Shown here in pieces: positions 1-5,554 of a stretch of 5,554 bases of DNA. Both the position numbers and the translations under genes were made by a program. The stretch comes from a virus (taxonomy: Duplodnaviria; Heunggongvirae; Uroviricota; Caudoviricetes). The stretch lies in the IMG/VR virus record IMGVR_UViG_2706794685_000013; one strand, given 5' to 3'. The notes under the pieces are model-generated. The model saw only the letters and a program-made list of their open reading frames with translations, had not been told where the DNA came from and did no database searches. Position 1 is the first letter of the stretch. Every line of letters starts with the position of its first letter.

Positions 1-406
1 GGGACGGAAGTCGCTGTCGTTCTCAAAATCGGTGGAGCTGCATGACAAAGTCATCGGGCATTATCTGAACATAAAACACTATCAATAAGTTGGAGTCATT
101 ACCCGATATCCTGCTGAGAACATAAACACCCACGGATCGAGGCGTACGCTATCATGTTGCTGTGCACCGCCCAGTTTATAATTGGCGATGGTATCGATAT
201 CCATGTACCACACTGACATGTTTTAAAAAATGCAATAAGACATTGTATCTGAAAGAAAAAACAGGATTTTGAGGCGCTTTTTTATACCGTTTTCCGTGTT
301 TTTAACTGCCTGATTTTATTGAAATCTTTTTTAGTTTTGCAGAAAGGATTTTTTGCTCGATCGCTTTAATTTTATACATTCCTGATAACGGAAATTTTTT
401 TGCCCG

Positions 407-436
407 TTGACAGTTTTTGTTCTCCGGGGCTATATT
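407..436 (+). promoter_or_regulatory. Putative sigma70 promoter: -35 TTGACA (407-412), 18-nt spacer, -10 TATATT (431-436), preceded by an A/T tract (392-401) resembling an UP element
   Basis: Exact TTGACA hexamer and a 5/6 match to TATAAT at allowed spacing, read directly from the sequence. Oriented toward the Rha-like gene at 679. Confidence 0.4.
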
Positions 437-497
437 CCTCACACAACCGCAAAATCGGTTGTCGGGATTGGCGTCTCGGATAACATCACAACGCATA

Positions 498-518
498 GCC
501 GCGTTTGCGGTTTTTTTT
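498..518 (+). terminator. Putative intrinsic terminator or attenuator in the leader: short GC stem (gccgc/gcggt, loop gttt) followed by a run of 8 T
   Basis: Hairpin plus T8 tract about 55-75 nt downstream of the predicted start site. The stem is short (4 GC pairs plus one GU), so strength is uncertain. Confidence 0.3.
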
Positions 519-678
519 GCGTTAAGCATTGCCACATTCGCATTATGGTGGGGCGTGCAGGGGCGGAGAAATCCGCGCCGGGTTTTGTGATGACCGGTTA
601 CGCCAACCCTGTACGTCTCACCACCTCCCTGATTGGCGTCAGAGGTGGTGATCATCCAATTAATTGGAGTCATCACAT

Positions 679-1239
679 ATGAATACAGCTATAACTTTTT
701 CTAACGAGTCACCAAAAGTCTTTTTCAAAGATGGTCGCCTGGTTACCACCTCTCAAGCTGTTGCCGACTACTTCGATAAACAACATAAACACGTTTTAGC
801 TAAGATTGACACACTCGACTGCTCTCCCGAATTTACATCAGCCAACTTTTCGGCCGATGTTCAGACTGTCGAAATTGGCAACGGCGCAGANNNNNNNNNN
901 NNNNNNNNNNNNNNNNNNNNNNNNNNNNNNNNNNNNNNNNNNNNNNNNNNNNNNNNNNNNNNNNNNNNNNNNNNNNNNNNNNNNNNNNNNNNNNNNNNNN
1001 NNNNNNNNNNNNNNNNNNNNNNNNNNNNNNNNNNNNNNNNNNNNNNNNNNNNNNNNNNNNNNNNNNNNNNNNNNNNNNNNNNNNNNNNNNNNNNNNNNNN
1101 NNNNNNNNNNNNNNNNNNNNNNNNNNNNNNNNNNNNNNNNNNNNNATGCACTCTGGAACGGTTTAAATTTTATCTGGAGCAACATGGGTGGATCGTTGCC
1201 CGTAAAGAACAATTGGTGGAAAGGTTGATGCGGTTTTAA
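679..1239 (+). CDS. Phage regulatory protein, Rha family (central part masked by N 891-1145)
   Basis: ATG at 679 with GGAG about 10 nt upstream. N-terminus MNTAITFSNESPKVFFKDGRLVTTSQAVADYFDKQHKHVLAKIDTL matches the Rha-domain pattern (xVTTSxxVAxxFxKxHxxVLxxIxxL). The masked run is 255 nt, an exact number of codons, and the same frame stays open to TAA at 1237-1239. Confidence 0.6.
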   Translation: MNTAITFSNESPKVFFKDGRLVTTSQAVADYFDKQHKHVLAKIDTLDCSPEFTSANFSADVQTVEIGNGAXXXXXXXXXXXXXXXXXXXXXXXXXXXXXXXXXXXXXXXXXXXXXXXXXXXXXXXXXXXXXXXXXXXXXXXXXXXXXXXXXXXXXXCTLERFKFYLEQHGWIVARKEQLVERLMRF

Positions 1240-1248
1240 TGAATGCAA

Positions 1249-1280
1249 AACCCCGGATGATCACCGAGGTTAATTTTATC
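1249..1280 (+). terminator. Putative intrinsic terminator after the Rha-like gene (stem aaccccgg/ccgaggtt with one mismatch, loop atgatca, then aattttat)
   Basis: Imperfect 8-bp inverted repeat followed by a T-rich tract immediately after the stop codon. Confidence 0.3.
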
Positions 1281-1365
1281 GAGCGTGATTGCCGCTAATC
1301 GCCATCGCTCTGATTGAGCGTAAATCATTCAGGTTATTCAGTTCTTCCTTCTGCTCTCGCTGACG

Positions 1366-1536
1366 TCAATAAATCCCATCATTGCGATCAACCTCATCCT
1401 TAACCATTGATGCGAGCAGTTCTTCCAGTTTCTGCGCTGACAGCTTTACCTGGTGATCTTCAGCATCTTCCCGGGCTATTGTGGTTCGCGCAGTGGCTGA
1501 TTTTGCTGACATCACCACAGGGGGCAGACGGACCAT
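1366..1536 (-). CDS. Hypothetical small protein (56 aa, MVRLPPVVMSAKSATARTTIAREDAEDHQVKLSAQKLEELLASMVKDEVDRNDGIY)
   Basis: ATG at 1536-1534 with GGAGG 10 nt upstream (plus-strand cctcc 1547-1551). I do not recognise the family. The longer ORF in the six-frame track (to 1647) uses a TTG start and would run through the tfa 3' hairpin, so I prefer the shorter form. Confidence 0.3.
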   Translation of the reverse strand: MVRLPPVVMSAKSATARTTIAREDAEDHQVKLSAQKLEELLASMVKDEVDRNDGIY

Positions 1537-1600
1537 TGAACCATGGCCTCCGGAACAAATAAGGGCAAAAATAACAACCACTATCGAAAGCTCACAAACT

Positions 1601-1760
1601 AACCGCAGCACGTTCCTGCATACGACGTGTCTGCGGCATAATCCCAATGATTACTCCCTGACAGGATTTGCAGGCCACTCAATATCAGGTGCAGTTGATG
1701 TATCAACACGATTCAACAATACCCGATATTTATTCCATGCCTCCAGCAACGATCTTTCTT
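1601..1760. repeat. Direct repeat copy A (about 140-160 bp): 3' end of a tfa gene plus its 3' hairpin; partner is 2651-2800
   Basis: Long identical stretches shared with 2651-2800 (for example ctgcggcataatcccaatgattactccctgacagg and ccactcaatatcaggtgcagttgatgtatcaacacg), with scattered substitutions and one 1-nt indel. Confidence 0.85.
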
Positions 1761-1884
1761 CCTCCGTTGCGATTTCCAGATCTACAGCATCCTGCAGTGG
1801 CGCAATATACTCACTAAATTCCTGGATGTAGAACTGTGTGGTGACGGTCTTCCAGCCATTCGGCTCCTGCTGTATCGAAGCATA
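1651..1884 (-). pseudogene. tfa: Tail fibre assembly protein (lambda Tfa-like), C-terminal 77-codon fragment lacking a 5' portion and start codon
   Basis: Minus-strand translation ...[54 protein letters not shown] closely matches the lambda Tfa C-terminus as I recall it (...[55 protein letters not shown]). Stop TAA at 1653-1651; the frame is closed upstream by TAG at 1887-1885. Confidence 0.65.
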
Positions 1885-1988
1885 CTAGGCTATTTCAATA
1901 TCGCTATGCTGCGGCAGCATTTAACCCCTTGTAATTCATCGCCATAATTGATTTAATTCACAAATAAAACTATAACATGGTGAAATCA

Positions 1989-2645
1989 ATGAAAACAAAC
2001 ACAGATGATGGGGCTAAAATTTACACACCACTTACCCTAAAGCTTTATGACTGGTGGGTTTTGGGAGTATCAAATCGGCTTGCATGGGGATGTCCTACAA
2101 AGGAACACCTTCTTCCACACTTTCTGGAACATTTAGGTAACAACCATCTGGATATTGGTGTTGGAACTGGGTTTTACCTTACTCACGTACCTGAGAGTAG
2201 TCTGATATCTTTAATGGATTTGAACGAAGCTAGCCTGAACGCGGCATCTACAAGGGCTGGGGAATCAAAAATTAAACATAAAATTAGCCATGATGTTTTT
2301 GAACCTTATCCCGCGGCGTTACATGGTCAATTTGATTCCATTTCCATGTTTTACCTTCTTCACTGCCTGCCTGGAAATATATCTACAAAAAGCTGTGTAA
2401 TACGCAATGCGGCGCAGGCCTTAACTGACGATGGAACTCTATACGGAGCCACAATTCTTGGCGATGGAGTTGTGCACAATAGCTTCGGTCAAAAACTGAT
2501 GCGCATTTACAATCAGAAAGGCATCTTTTCAAACACAAAAGATTCCGAAGAAGGCTTAACACATATACTCTCAGAGCATTTCGAGAATGTTAAAACCAGG
2601 GTTCAAGGTACTGTAGTAATGTTTTCCGCTTCAGGGAAAAAATAG
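1989..2645 (+). CDS. Class I SAM-dependent methyltransferase, small-molecule/protein/RNA type, not a DNA methyltransferase (alternative start ATG 1977)
   Basis: Rossmann-fold motifs in order: motif I LDIGVGTG, acidic post-I LMDLNEASL, motif II FDSISMFYLL, motif III LTDDGTLYGATI. No DPPY/NPPY or PCQ/ENV DNA-methyltransferase motifs. GGTGA lies 5 nt upstream of ATG 1989. Visibly AT-rich relative to flanking phage genes. Confidence 0.8.
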   Translation: MKTNTDDGAKIYTPLTLKLYDWWVLGVSNRLAWGCPTKEHLLPHFLEHLGNNHLDIGVGTGFYLTHVPESSLISLMDLNEASLNAASTRAGESKIKHKISHDVFEPYPAALHGQFDSISMFYLLHCLPGNISTKSCVIRNAAQALTDDGTLYGATILGDGVVHNSFGQKLMRIYNQKGIFSNTKDSEEGLTHILSEHFENVKTRVQGTVVMFSASGKK

Positions 2646-2652
2646 CATCCAA

Positions 2653-2685
2653 CCGCAGCACGTTCTTGCTTAAGACGTGCTGCGG
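2653..2685. other. Perfect 11-bp inverted repeat (ccgcagcacgt / acgtgctgcgg) with an 11-nt loop; likely the tfa 3' hairpin or terminator. Imperfect counterpart at 1603-1636
   Basis: Reverse-complement symmetry read directly. On the minus strand it follows the tfa-fragment stop, on the plus strand it follows the methyltransferase stop. Confidence 0.4.
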
Positions 2686-2699
2686 CATAATCCCAATGA

Positions 2700-2789
2700 T
2701 TACTCCCTGACAGGGTTCGTAGGCCACTCAATATCAGGTGCAGTTGATGTATCAACACGGTTCAGCAACACCCGATACTTTTTCTAGGC
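2700..2789 (-). pseudogene. tfa: tfa 3'-end fragment (last 29 codons), fused in frame to the pin fragment; has an internal TAG where copy A has TGG (Trp)
   Basis: Minus-strand translation [28 protein letters not shown], collinear with copy A ([29 protein letters not shown]). Confidence 0.6.
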
Positions 2790-3026
2790 TTCCACCACCA
2801 GCACGACAAGATGCCGCATACAGTGCCCCAGTCAGTCCAGTTTTCAGACAACCAGTGCGTCACCTTTTTGAAGGCGCTTTAAAGCACGTTTTAATCCAGG
2901 TCGGCCTGTCCTTGTTCCGCTTAATTTATCTTCAAATATTTGTTCATATCCTGCACAAACAAGAGCGTTTCGTTGCAGGTCTGTATTCTGGTCATTTGTT
3001 GATACCCTTACATAGCCAATCAGCAC
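2790..3026 (-). pseudogene. pin: Serine invertase of the Pin/Gin/Hin/Cin family, N-terminal 79 codons only, with GTG start and two in-frame TGA stops
   Basis: Translation VLIGYVRVSTNDQNTDLQRNALVCAGYEQIFEDKLSGTRTGRPGLKRALKRLQKGDALVV*KLD*LGHCMRHLVVLVVE matches Pin/Gin (MLIGYVRVSTNDQNTDLQRNALVCAGCEQIFEDKLSGTRTDRPGLKRALKRLQKGDTLVVWKLDRLGRSMKHLISLVGE), including the catalytic Ser in VRVSTNDQ. Stops replace Trp61 (TGG to TGA) and Arg65 (CGA to TGA). GGGAG lies 6 nt upstream of the GTG. No resolvase C-terminus or DNA-binding domain follows. Confidence 0.8.
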
Positions 3027-3080
3027 GCTGAATCTCCCGTCCAAAAGCACAAATCATGCCATGCAGGCCAGAAACCGCCA

Positions 3081-3106
3081 TTATCTAAAACCTCGGTTTA
3101 CGAGAA
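3081..3106. other. Invertase crossover site (gix/pix/cix-like 26-bp imperfect palindrome), TTATCTAAAACCTCGGTTTACGAGAA
   Basis: Reverse complement TTCTCGTAAACCGAGGTTTTAGATAA matches the gix consensus TTCCTGTAAACCGAGGTTTTGGATAA (as recalled) at about 24 of 26 positions. It sits between the invertase start and the start of the tail-fibre variable cassette, as in Mu, P1 and e14. Confidence 0.7.
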
Positions 3107-4067
3107 CTCGGCACAAGCGGGGAGAAAATACCGTTACTCAGTACAGCGAATACCTGGACTAATCGACAAACATTCAGCGGTGGCCTTTCTGGTGAACTAT
3201 CCGGCAATGCTTCTACAGCTGCAAAATTAAAAACTGCCAGGAAAATAAGCAATGTGGCTTTTGATGGTTCCTCCGATATCACATTAAAAGCAAGTCATGT
3301 TGGTGCGTTTGCCTTAGGGAAAACAGGAAGCACCGTTGCGAATGATAAAGCAGTTGGATGGAACTGGAGTAGCGGAGCCTATAACGCAACNNNNNNNNNN
3401 NNNNNNNNNNNNNNNNNNNNNNNNNNNNNNNNNNNNNNNNNNNNNNNNNNNNNNNNNNNNNNNNNNNNNNNNNNNNNNNNNNNNNNNNNNNNNNNNNNNN
3501 NNNNNNNNNNNNNNNNNNNNNNNNNNNNNNNNNNNNNNNNNNNNNNNNNNNNNNNNNNNNNNNNNNNNNNNNNNNNNNNNNNNNNNNNNNNNNNNNNNNN
3601 NNNNNNNNNNNNNNNNNNNNNNNNNNNNNNNNNNNNNNNNNNNNNNNNNNNNNNNNNNNNNNNNNNNNNNNNNNNNNNNNNNNNNNNNNNNNNNNGGTAA
3701 TTCGATTGTATTGGGTGATAATGACACGGGCTTTAAACAAAAAGGCGATGGTAATCTGGATGTTTATGCTAATAACGTCCATGTTATGCGCTTTGTCTCC
3801 GGAAGCATTCAAAGTAATAAAACCATAAATATTACGGGACGTGTTAATCCCTCGGATTACGGTAACTTTGATTCCCGCTATGTGAGAGATGTCAGACTTG
3901 GCACACGAGTTGTTTAGACCATGAAGAAAGGCGTGATGTATGAAAAATCAGGCCATGTAATCACGGGGCTTGGTATTATCGGTGAAGTCGATGGTGATGA
4001 TCCGGCAGTATTCAGACCAATACAAAAGTTAATTAACGGAACATGGTATAACGTATCGCAGGTATAA
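3089..4067 (+). pseudogene. stf: Side tail fibre variable C-terminal cassette (Sv), promoterless and not joined to a constant region in this orientation; masked 3391-3695; in-frame TAG at 3915-3917
   Basis: Open frame from inside the crossover site: NLGLRELGTSGEKIPLLSTANTWTNRQTFSGGLSGELSGNASTAAKLKTARKISNVAFDGSSDITLKASHVGAFALGKTGSTVANDKAVGWNWSSGAYNA... After the gap: [122 protein letters not shown], which matches the lambda-type Stf C-terminus. The two flanks are in different frames if the N-run length is literal. Confidence 0.8.
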
Positions 4068-4069
4068 TC

Positions 4070-4603
4070 ATGCAGCATTTAAAAAACATTGTCGCAGGTA
4101 ATCCAAAAACCGTTGAACAATACCAGCTAACAAAGAATTTTGATGTTATCTGGTTATGGTCCGAAGATGGAAAAAATTGGCATGAGGAATTAAAAAACTT
4201 TCAGGAGGATACAATAAAACTGGCTTACACAGTTGAGGGAATAATTATTGCTATAGACAAGGATGTATCAGCAATTAATCCAGAAGGTTTAAGTGTCGTT
4301 GAGTTGCCTGATATTACAGCAAATCGCCGGGCTGATATTTCGGGCAACTGGATGTTCAAAGATGGTGCGGTGATAAAGCGAACTTATACCGAGGAAGAGC
4401 AAAGGCAACAAGCGGAAAATGAAAAGCAGAGCCTGCTGCAGCTCGTCAGGGATAAAACCCAGCTGTGGGACTCTCAGCTACAGCTGGGCATCATTTCCGA
4501 TGAGAATAAACAAAAATTAACCGAGTGGATGCTCTATGCGCAGAAGGTTGAATCCACAGACACCTCCAGCCTGCCAGTAACGTTTCCCGAACAACCAGAA
4601 TGA
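4070..4603 (+). CDS. tfa: Tail fibre assembly protein Tfa (lambda Tfa / Mu U family)
   Basis: 177-aa [25 protein letters not shown]...[32 protein letters not shown] is 2 nt after the tail-fibre stop (TAAtcATG), the usual stf-tfa coupling. Confidence 0.9.
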
Positions 4604-4606
4604 GAG

Positions 4607-4636
4607 AAGGCCCGCTATCGGGCCTTAATTTTTATT
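4607..4636. terminator. Bidirectional intrinsic terminator between the convergent tfa genes: stem aaggcccg / cgggcctt (8 bp, loop ctat) followed by aatttttatt
   Basis: Perfect 8-bp GC-rich hairpin with a T tract, placed between the stops of the two convergent tfa genes. Confidence 0.6.
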
Positions 4637-5159
4637 CAGGCTTTTGTGGCCATTCAGGATTTGCCGTATCCACACGGCTGACCAGAACACTGTAGCGTTC
4701 CCATGCTTCCAGTCGTGTGCGTTCCTCGTCTGTTGCCATATTCAGCCTGACAGCTCGTTCCAGCGGCTGGATGACTGATTCAGCTTCGGAAAGCAATGCG
4801 GCCTTTTGTGATTCGGCCTGTTGTTGCAGTTCCTGTTCTGTATATTCCCTCTTTACTACTTTACCATCCAGAAACATCCATTTTCCGTTATTGTCTGCGT
4901 GACGATTTGCCGTAATATCAGGAACTTCAACTATGCTTAGCCCTTCAGGATTAATAGTTGAAACGTCTTTACTGACAGCAACGATGATGTTGTTCTCATC
5001 GTAAGCAATTTTTATGGTGTCTGGCTGAAAATTCTTTTGTTCCTCATACCAGTTTTTGCCATCTTCGCAAAAGAGCCATACCACGCCCGCTTTTTTAGTT
5101 AGCTGGTATTGTTCCGGTGTTTTCGGATTCCCGGCCTTAATATTTTTCAGGTGCATCAT
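4632..5159 (-). CDS. tfa: Tail fibre assembly protein Tfa, alternative copy on the opposite strand (Mu U-prime type)
   Basis: 175-aa [33 protein letters not shown]...[35 protein letters not shown] at 5159-5157 is 1 nt after the upstream fibre stop, with GGGGAG upstream. The longer ORF in the track uses an upstream TTG and is not preferred. Confidence 0.9.
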
Positions 5160-5160
5160 C

Positions 5161-5449
5161 TTAAACACTCCCCACGTTGTACCATATTCCCCCAATCAAT
5201 TTCTGAATTGGCCTTCTGGCAACAGTGTCGACAATATCATCCGCATTGCTGTTAATTGCGGCTGTTAAAACATAACCTGACGCATCGCCAAAGCCGTAGT
5301 CGCGCCATACGTTTTTATATTCAATGCTGCCAAGACGAATATCCCGAACGACATGATTATGCAGCCATGTGCTTAACCAGTTGTTTTCCCACACTGAACC
5401 ATAAATATCGCCACTAGACGCAACTTGCGCACCACTTCCCAGCGCAAAT
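5161..5449 (-). pseudogene. stf: Alternative tail fibre variable cassette (Sv-prime), C-terminal fragment only, truncated at its 5' side by the IS insertion
   Basis: Translation ...[95 protein letters not shown] shares the C-terminal [12 protein letters not shown] signature with the other cassette. The upstream part of the ORF in the track (MSVKLRLPQ) is IS-derived sequence. Confidence 0.75.
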
Positions 5450-5554
5450 TGAGGTAGCCTGAGTTTAACGGACACTCCTTCCTGAAATAGAATGGCATCA
5501 GAAGGAGCTAATAATGAGCAGAAAAACCCAACGTTACTCTAAAGAGTTCAAAGC
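5450..5554 (+). mobile_element. IS3-family insertion sequence (IS600-like), left end and start of orfA; continues beyond the window
   Basis: Element end begins TGAGGTAGCC (IS3-family ends start with TG), followed by AAGGAG and ATG at 5514 opening an ORF MSRKTQRYSKEFK..., which I recognise as the N-terminus of IS3-family OrfA proteins. Tail-fibre homology stops abruptly at 5449-5450. Confidence 0.6.
5514..5554 (+). CDS. IS3-family transposase OrfA, first 13 codons only (partial at window edge)
   Basis: AAGGAG 6 nt upstream of the ATG; MSRKTQRYSKEFK is typical of the start of the IS3-family OrfA helix-turn-helix region. Confidence 0.5.
   Translation, partial: MSRKTQRYSKEFK

Follow-up and report, generated by a model that had tools for sequence, protein, structure and literature searches.

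The right-hand end of a 5,554-nucleotide stretch of Caudoviricetes DNA (IMG/VR record IMGVR_UViG_2706794685_000013; the whole stretch is referred to here as the window) raises the question of what ends its tail-fibre coding sequence so abruptly, and what became of the rest of the gene. A first-pass annotation had placed the break at 5449-5450 and attributed it to an IS3-family insertion truncating an alternative tail-fibre cassette. The element is IS600, a member of the IS3 family first described in Shigella sonnei. All 105 nucleotides of window 5450-5554 are identical to nucleotides 1-105 of the 1264-nt element on the plus strand (100% identity to L002 2501-2605). Matches to the same segment were found in 3,301 E. 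coli records and reached 99% identity or more in 3,210, numbers that rule out a chance match, and PGAP labels the matched features 'IS3-like element IS600 family transposase, programmed frameshift'. Within the segment, the left inverted repeat starts with TGAGGT at 5450 (according to the repeat alignment from full copies), a promoter scan picked up a promoter-like TTAACG-17-TAGAAT at 5465-5493, and a ribosome-binding site, AGGAG (5503-5507), precedes an ATG at 5514, all on the plus strand. This ATG opens orfA, of which the first 13 codons plus 2 nt are present; their translation, MSRKTQRYSKEFK, is the N-terminus of the 100-aa IS600 OrfA, and the OrfA-like start noted earlier had thus been correctly recognized. 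Elsewhere in the window, outside 5450-5554, there is no further IS600 sequence.

The exact position of the break follows from a comparison with uninterrupted relatives. Across the boundary, the window reads ...CAGCGCAAAT|TGAGGTAGCCTGAGTTTAACGGACACTCC... (segment 5100-5554). When window 4600-5554 was compared with 5,426 complete E. coli genomes by megablast, 24 records showed at least 80% query coverage, and in 19 of these the alignment, of up to 99.2% identity, stops at query position 850, corresponding to window 5449; the other five end at 843 or 812. None of the 24 records carries the stf|IS600 junction itself. Because the intact flank continues as ...GCGCAAAT|CCCCC and the window as ...GCGCAAAT|TGAGG, the breakpoint 5449/5450 is unambiguous. 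A tblastn comparison with an intact cassette of 298 aa (L001 6562-7458, from a P2-like prophage of E. coli ZY22049) agrees with this position: residues 204-298 align to window 5448-5164 at 97.9% identity, and the homology stops exactly at 5449. The window retains ~289 of the 897 nt of the cassette, namely the C-terminal 95 codons, with the stop, of the side tail-fibre gene stf, which belong to its variable, receptor-binding part and lie on the minus strand (5161-5449, with the 95 residues encoded by 5164-5448 and the stop at 5161-5163). The disruption of the tail-fibre coding sequence at one discrete point was accordingly borne out. A genome-contig scan for the 44-nt junction returned no match, S. 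sonnei evidently not being among the species representatives of that collection.

As the element is represented in the window by no more than its first 105 nt, its completeness was judged from other genomes with the identical junction. Ten such loci (L003-L012) lie in chromosomal records of 4.78-4.86 Mb; the source records include S. sonnei strain 866 (L011, CP022672.1) and CP109775, a record that an S. sonnei study cites. Outside its masked runs, the window shares 99.9-100% identity with these loci. In all ten, IS600 is present in full length, with 1264 nt that are 99.6-99.8% identical to the PGAP-annotated copy of E. coli E2865, amounting to 2-4 substitutions or indels. The E2865 reference (1264 bp, L002 2501-3764) interrupts ninF and is flanked by a CGC duplication; a further copy, #2, has a 3-bp duplication of GGA. 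The element is bounded by imperfect TG...CA inverted repeats, IRL TGAGGTAGCCTGAGTTTAACGGACACTCC vs IRR (reverse complement) TGAGGTGTACTGGCAATAGCGGACACTACC, with the ends reading TGAGGTAGCCTG...GGACACTCC for IRL and TGAGGTGTACTG...GGACACTACC for IRR; of these, the window holds IRL only. In the full copies, orfA occupies IS nt 65-367 (100 aa), and orfB, open in the -1 frame over IS nt 304-1221, overlaps it at the slippery heptamer A-AAA-AAA (IS nt 316-322), where a programmed frameshift is predicted from sequence and annotation. The fused 385-aa OrfAB scores 412.6 bits against the NCBIfam model NF033516 (IS3 family transposase, cut-off 160) and matches the Pfam domains HTH_Tnp_1 (2.2e-22), HTH_21 and rve (1.7e-25). 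The orfA/orfB architecture, the heptamer and the right inverted repeat, whose absence downstream would have spoken against the IS3 assignment, are found in 10 of 10 loci. With respect to length, terminal repeats, both reading frames, the heptamer and 3-bp target-site duplications, the copies at the stf junction show no notable difference from IS600 as known.

The same ten loci bear on the possibility that the junction is a chimeric contig end produced by assembly, a solo terminal fragment or the edge of some other IS3-family element. Both window ends fall into repeats, IS1 at 1-103 and IS600 at 5450-5554, as is typical of collapsed repeats, and the window has the appearance of a contig from short reads that broke in these multi-copy elements. 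Yet the junction is located mid-record in the ten chromosomes and in a 21.5-kb IMG/VR contig, and always leads into a full IS600 of 99.6-99.8% identity. We therefore regard this group of explanations as extremely improbable, the assembly artefact being effectively refuted by an identical junction in ten large chromosomal assemblies with ten different accessions.

How the element entered the gene can be read from strain 866. In L011, the locus has the form ...GCGCAAAT|IS600|AATCCCCCATCTG..., compared to ...GCGCAAAT|CCCCCATCTG... in the intact E. coli locus L001, and with its far flank, (AAT)CCCCCATCTGTTTTAAAAATG..., it resumes the sequence of the uninterrupted E. coli locus. The first-pass annotation had suggested looking for a target-site duplication, and the 3-bp AAT is such a duplication: one copy occupies window 5447-5449, and in strain 866 the other comes after the right IS end. 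Upon deleting IS600 and one AAT from L011, we obtained an open frame of 942 codons, or 918 aa counted from MTVKISG (MTVKISGVLKDGTGKPV), in which the insertion point lies after codon 823 and the IS is oriented opposite to the gene. As this restored frame sits downstream of lambda-like L, K, I and lom in the L011 gene order, it represents the lambdoid side tail-fibre gene stf, the N-terminal part of which is annotated in E. coli as 'prophage tail fiber N-terminal domain-containing protein'. (For the Lom homologue, a search of 90%-cluster representatives gave a best full-length match at 93% identity.) Given that removing the IS restores an stf of 918 codons and that AAT is duplicated, the primary event was a simple transposition, with IS600 separating the last 95 stf codons from the N-terminal 823. 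The earlier wording that the IS truncates the cassette thus holds for the window alone: originally the element simply inserted, and the N-terminal part was lost or displaced later, in most strains.

Taken together, we are confident, at a probability of roughly 0.93, that IS600 transposed into stf of a defective prophage and that IS600-IS600 recombination followed in most strains. According to the mechanism we propose, the 1264-bp element transposed into the variable receptor-binding C-terminal part of stf, in a defective lambdoid prophage that lies between ompW and trpA in Shigella sonnei. It entered between codons 823 and 824 of 918, opposite to stf and in the stf-fused cassette, duplicating AAT and splitting the gene such that the last 95 codons were cut off from the rest, as seen in the window. 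Being multi-copy, IS600 causes short-read assemblies to break inside the element, which accounts for the window stopping 105 nt into it. Later recombination with other IS600 copies would have brought the far end next to the Q/nanS/holin late region that it adjoins in most closed genomes, and further variants originated by deletion between direct copies in one strain and by inversion between inverted copies in another. The insertion is widespread in S. sonnei. For the strain of the window, of which 105 nt of the element are at hand, the completeness of IS600, the duplication and the far-side context are extrapolated from the other genomes.

Beyond the right end of the window, the loci diverge. 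The AAT duplication at this IS600 copy is present in one of the ten loci, L011, and absent from the other nine, which later IS-IS recombination would explain. The far flank is of the GTT type (GTTAGTCAGC...) in 7 of the 10 displayed loci and in 12 similar places outside the display, TCCATCACC... in L006 and GGATAGCGG... in L008; AAT occurs only in L011. On the majority far side lies a lambdoid late region comprising DUF968, RusA, Q, a DNA methylase, a second IS600 (with the GGA duplication), a nanS-like gene, a holin, DUF1327 and an endolysin-start remnant. The remnant (L004 8422-8762) begins like a SAR endolysin (MSAKIKYGLSAAVLALIA...), degenerates into repetitive sequence and is followed by the GTT flank of the majority. 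Three IS600 copies were located in ~12.5 kb beside the locus (L004 4036-5299 and 8763-10026; L008 1139-2402). Relative to the majority type (L004), L008 lacks the 3.5 kb between IS600 #2 and #1 together with one IS copy, a 4.7-kb deletion between direct IS600 repeats. In L006, pairwise alignment revealed an inversion of ~11 kb between the oppositely oriented IS600 #3 and copy #1. Strain 866 appears to keep the ancestral state after insertion, and the majority arrangement would have arisen by IS600-IS600 recombination, as a deletion or an inversion relative to the 866 type.

For the window's own strain, these data make it likely that IS600 marks a rearrangement or deletion junction, and hence a true truncation, adjoining the late region with DUF1327, holin, nanS and Q. 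Such a state refines the transposition scenario without contradicting it. It is favoured by the frequency of the GTT-type flank beside the endolysin-start remnant, DUF1327, holin and nanS, and by the IMG/VR contig L014, which carries the majority, late-region arrangement. On the other hand, the window ends inside IS600, and its right part (3696-5554) is 100% identical to the 866-type L011 with one mismatch to L004. In 1-3390 the relation is reversed; as one part favours L011 and the other L004, the SNPs do not decide the arrangement. Alternatively, the window strain could carry the simple insertion as in 866, the remaining 823 stf codons following directly after the 1264-bp IS and AAT. This arrangement does exist in L011 (CP022672.1), but it is found in one of ~22 long contigs, and we consider it rather unlikely for the window. 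A viral-contig scan for the reciprocal junction (IRR+AAT+stf) gave no match.

The restored gene also reveals which of two fibre cassettes was hit. The window contains a second cassette, a silent alternative C-terminal part of the fibre on the plus strand (3107-4067, partly N-masked, recognized by gp37-type Pfam matches), followed by its own tail-fibre assembly gene (tfa; 4070-4603, plus strand, Pfam Caudo_TAP E = 4.8e-34). The 5' 159 nt of this tfa form an inverted repeat with 5001-5159, which belongs to the intact tfa gene cognate to the interrupted cassette (4632-5159, minus strand, Caudo_TAP E = 7.9e-37). Next to the silent cassette we found a crossover site of the Gin/Pin/Cin invertase type, TTATCTAAAACCTCGGTTTACGAGAA (3081-3106), which we take to resemble the gix/cix consensus. 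In L011 it is part of an inverted repeat of 30 nt with 83% complementarity (8131-8160 / 12318-12347), whose second arm equals window 3077-3106; the partner site lies inside stf, ~600 bp past the IS insertion point and outside the window. As this pair brackets IS600 together with both tfa genes and both variable cassettes, IS600 lies within the invertible segment. The constant N-terminal 620 codons of stf run in frame into the interrupted cassette in strain 866, and the plus-strand cassette at ~3107-4067, beside the remnant of a pin-like invertase, is the promoterless silent one. The first-pass annotation had this the wrong way round: the cassette split by IS600 is the one fused to stf in 866 and not the silent alternative.

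The remnant itself encodes the N-terminal ~60-68 codons of a serine recombinase (2844-3050, minus strand; Pfam Resolvase positions 2-69 of 145) and is annotated in E. coli L013 as 'recombinase family protein, incomplete, missing C-terminus'. This 68-aa N-terminal Resolvase fragment is all there is of an adjacent serine invertase, and no functional one was found next to the segment. The layout is that of the Pin/Gin/Cin segments of lambdoid and P2-like prophages (e14 P region, Mu G segment, P1 C segment), with two opposed fibre cassettes each having its own tfa, inverted crossover sites of ~26 bp, one of them inside the fibre gene, and a serine invertase gene alongside. In contrast to these systems, the present segment is dead: the invertase is reduced to ~60-68 codons, the silent cassette has a stop, and the cassette in expressed orientation is split by IS600. 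The stop is in frame at 3915-3917 (...RLGTRVV*TMKKGVMY...) and divides the silent cassette into ORFs of 203 and 48 aa, so that both fibre cassettes are defective. Unless an invertase is supplied in trans, the segment is probably locked in its present orientation. In view of the truncated pin, the nonsense codon in the silent cassette and IS1 at ompW, IS600 may have hit an already non-functional gene set rather than having been the inactivating event.

The insertion also created a chimeric ORF of 104 aa on the minus strand (5161-5475, from mechanical ORF calling), which starts with a GTG within the IS600 left end and joins 9 IS-encoded residues to the 95-aa Stf tip. Its database entries are titled 'bacteriophage tail protein [Shigella sonnei]' or 'MULTISPECIES: hypothetical protein [Shigella]'. 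The exact 104-aa ORF occurs in 585 contigs, and every named cluster member is S. sonnei or Shigella. It was found in 450 collection blocks; sorted by the longest carrier, 36 of these are on a contig >1 Mb and most are in the 2-10 kb classes. Numerous proteins in the cluster are 'partial' and come from contigs of ~5.3-5.7 kb, similar to the window. An outward promoter driving the ORF was considered and rejected: in 5100-5554, the minus strand has no promoter-like site, the sole match being the plus-strand one upstream of orfA. It is conceivable, although we rate this as highly improbable, that the chimeric ORF and the intact tfa downstream are co-expressed, yielding a free receptor-binding tip that has kept some function, such as blocking a surface receptor against superinfecting phages. 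In a more modest version, the IS600 copy might act as a recombination hotspot that removed the whole morphogenetic block of the prophage, its junction types (AAT, GTT, TCC and GGA flanks) marking S. sonnei sublineages.

IS-mediated rearrangement had also been suggested as the source of the larger changes in the region. This holds to the right of the window, as exemplified by the L008 deletion and the L006 inversion, but not for the rearrangements inside it. The part of the window spanning 1146-3390, with the tfa fragments, a methyltransferase, the cut pin and the start of the silent cassette, recurs in 377 complete E. coli genomes, where it is 99.5% identical. E. coli O25b:H4 (NZ_CP015085.1) has the prophage at the same trpA-ompW site, with ash, rha, tfa fragments, methyltransferase, pin remnant and silent cassette at 99.5% and an stf constant region 96% identical to that of S. 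sonnei. It differs in having neither IS600 in stf nor IS1 at ompW, and window 3902-5449 is unmatched, other internal alleles taking its place; in the 20-kb stretch examined, window 5450-5554 had no BLAST match. IS600 as the cause of the pin truncation or the methyltransferase insertion was rejected on these grounds, the arrangement being present in the 377 E. coli genomes, one of which, examined for IS600, shows none in this stretch. The class I SAM-dependent methyltransferase gene (1977-2645) is flanked by direct repeats of ~148 nt (1601-1748 and 2651-2797, 90% identical); the E. coli O25b:H4 annotation treats these repeats as pseudogene fragments of tail-fibre assembly genes. The methyltransferase has the appearance of cargo that was inserted between remnants of tfa, beside the truncated invertase.

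IS600 is one of five IS that have expanded in all Shigella species, and IS insertions have been described at population scale as a substantial contributor to pseudogene formation in Shigella (PMC7373316). In the genome of S. sonnei 866, IS elements were reported in most of the prophages (PMC6128377). The feature at the 3' end of the window is a textbook case of a cryptic S. sonnei prophage decaying through IS600 and undergoing IS-IS recombination, already known and contained in annotated public genomes. Its significance is small beyond bookkeeping, as another case of such decay, but it explains the recovery of the region as a contig of ~5.5 kb with IS1 at one end and IS600 at the other, and corrects which fibre cassette stood in the expressed orientation. 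Furthermore, the variable far flank of the IS600 copy could act as a structural marker among S. sonnei strains.

Some minor observations concern the window and its relatives in IMG/VR. At the left end, positions 1-103 are the right end of IS1, adjoining a 3' remnant of ompW (104-219, minus strand), and a minus-strand ORF (82-219) reads ...FMFSAGYR from this remnant into IS1. The N runs at 891-1145 and 3391-3695 measure 255 and 305 nt, compared to 252 and 253 nt in closed S. sonnei genomes; as masked and real lengths are unequal, coordinates are shifted by 3 and 52 nt relative to the real sequence. Two IMG/VR contigs, L016 (1-10301) and L015 (3785-4272), carry the identical stf|IS600 junction. 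At a point corresponding to window ~1673, inside the tfa-fragment repeat, L016 departs from the chromosomal rha/ash/ompW side, and the DNA to the left is phage-plasmid-like, with SopA/ParB and ~98% identity to E. coli plasmids of 46 kb. Either the linkage is genuine and represents an alternative, or the assembly has produced a chimera through the repeat; in L015, the match to the chromosome ends at the same point, with 488 nt remaining.
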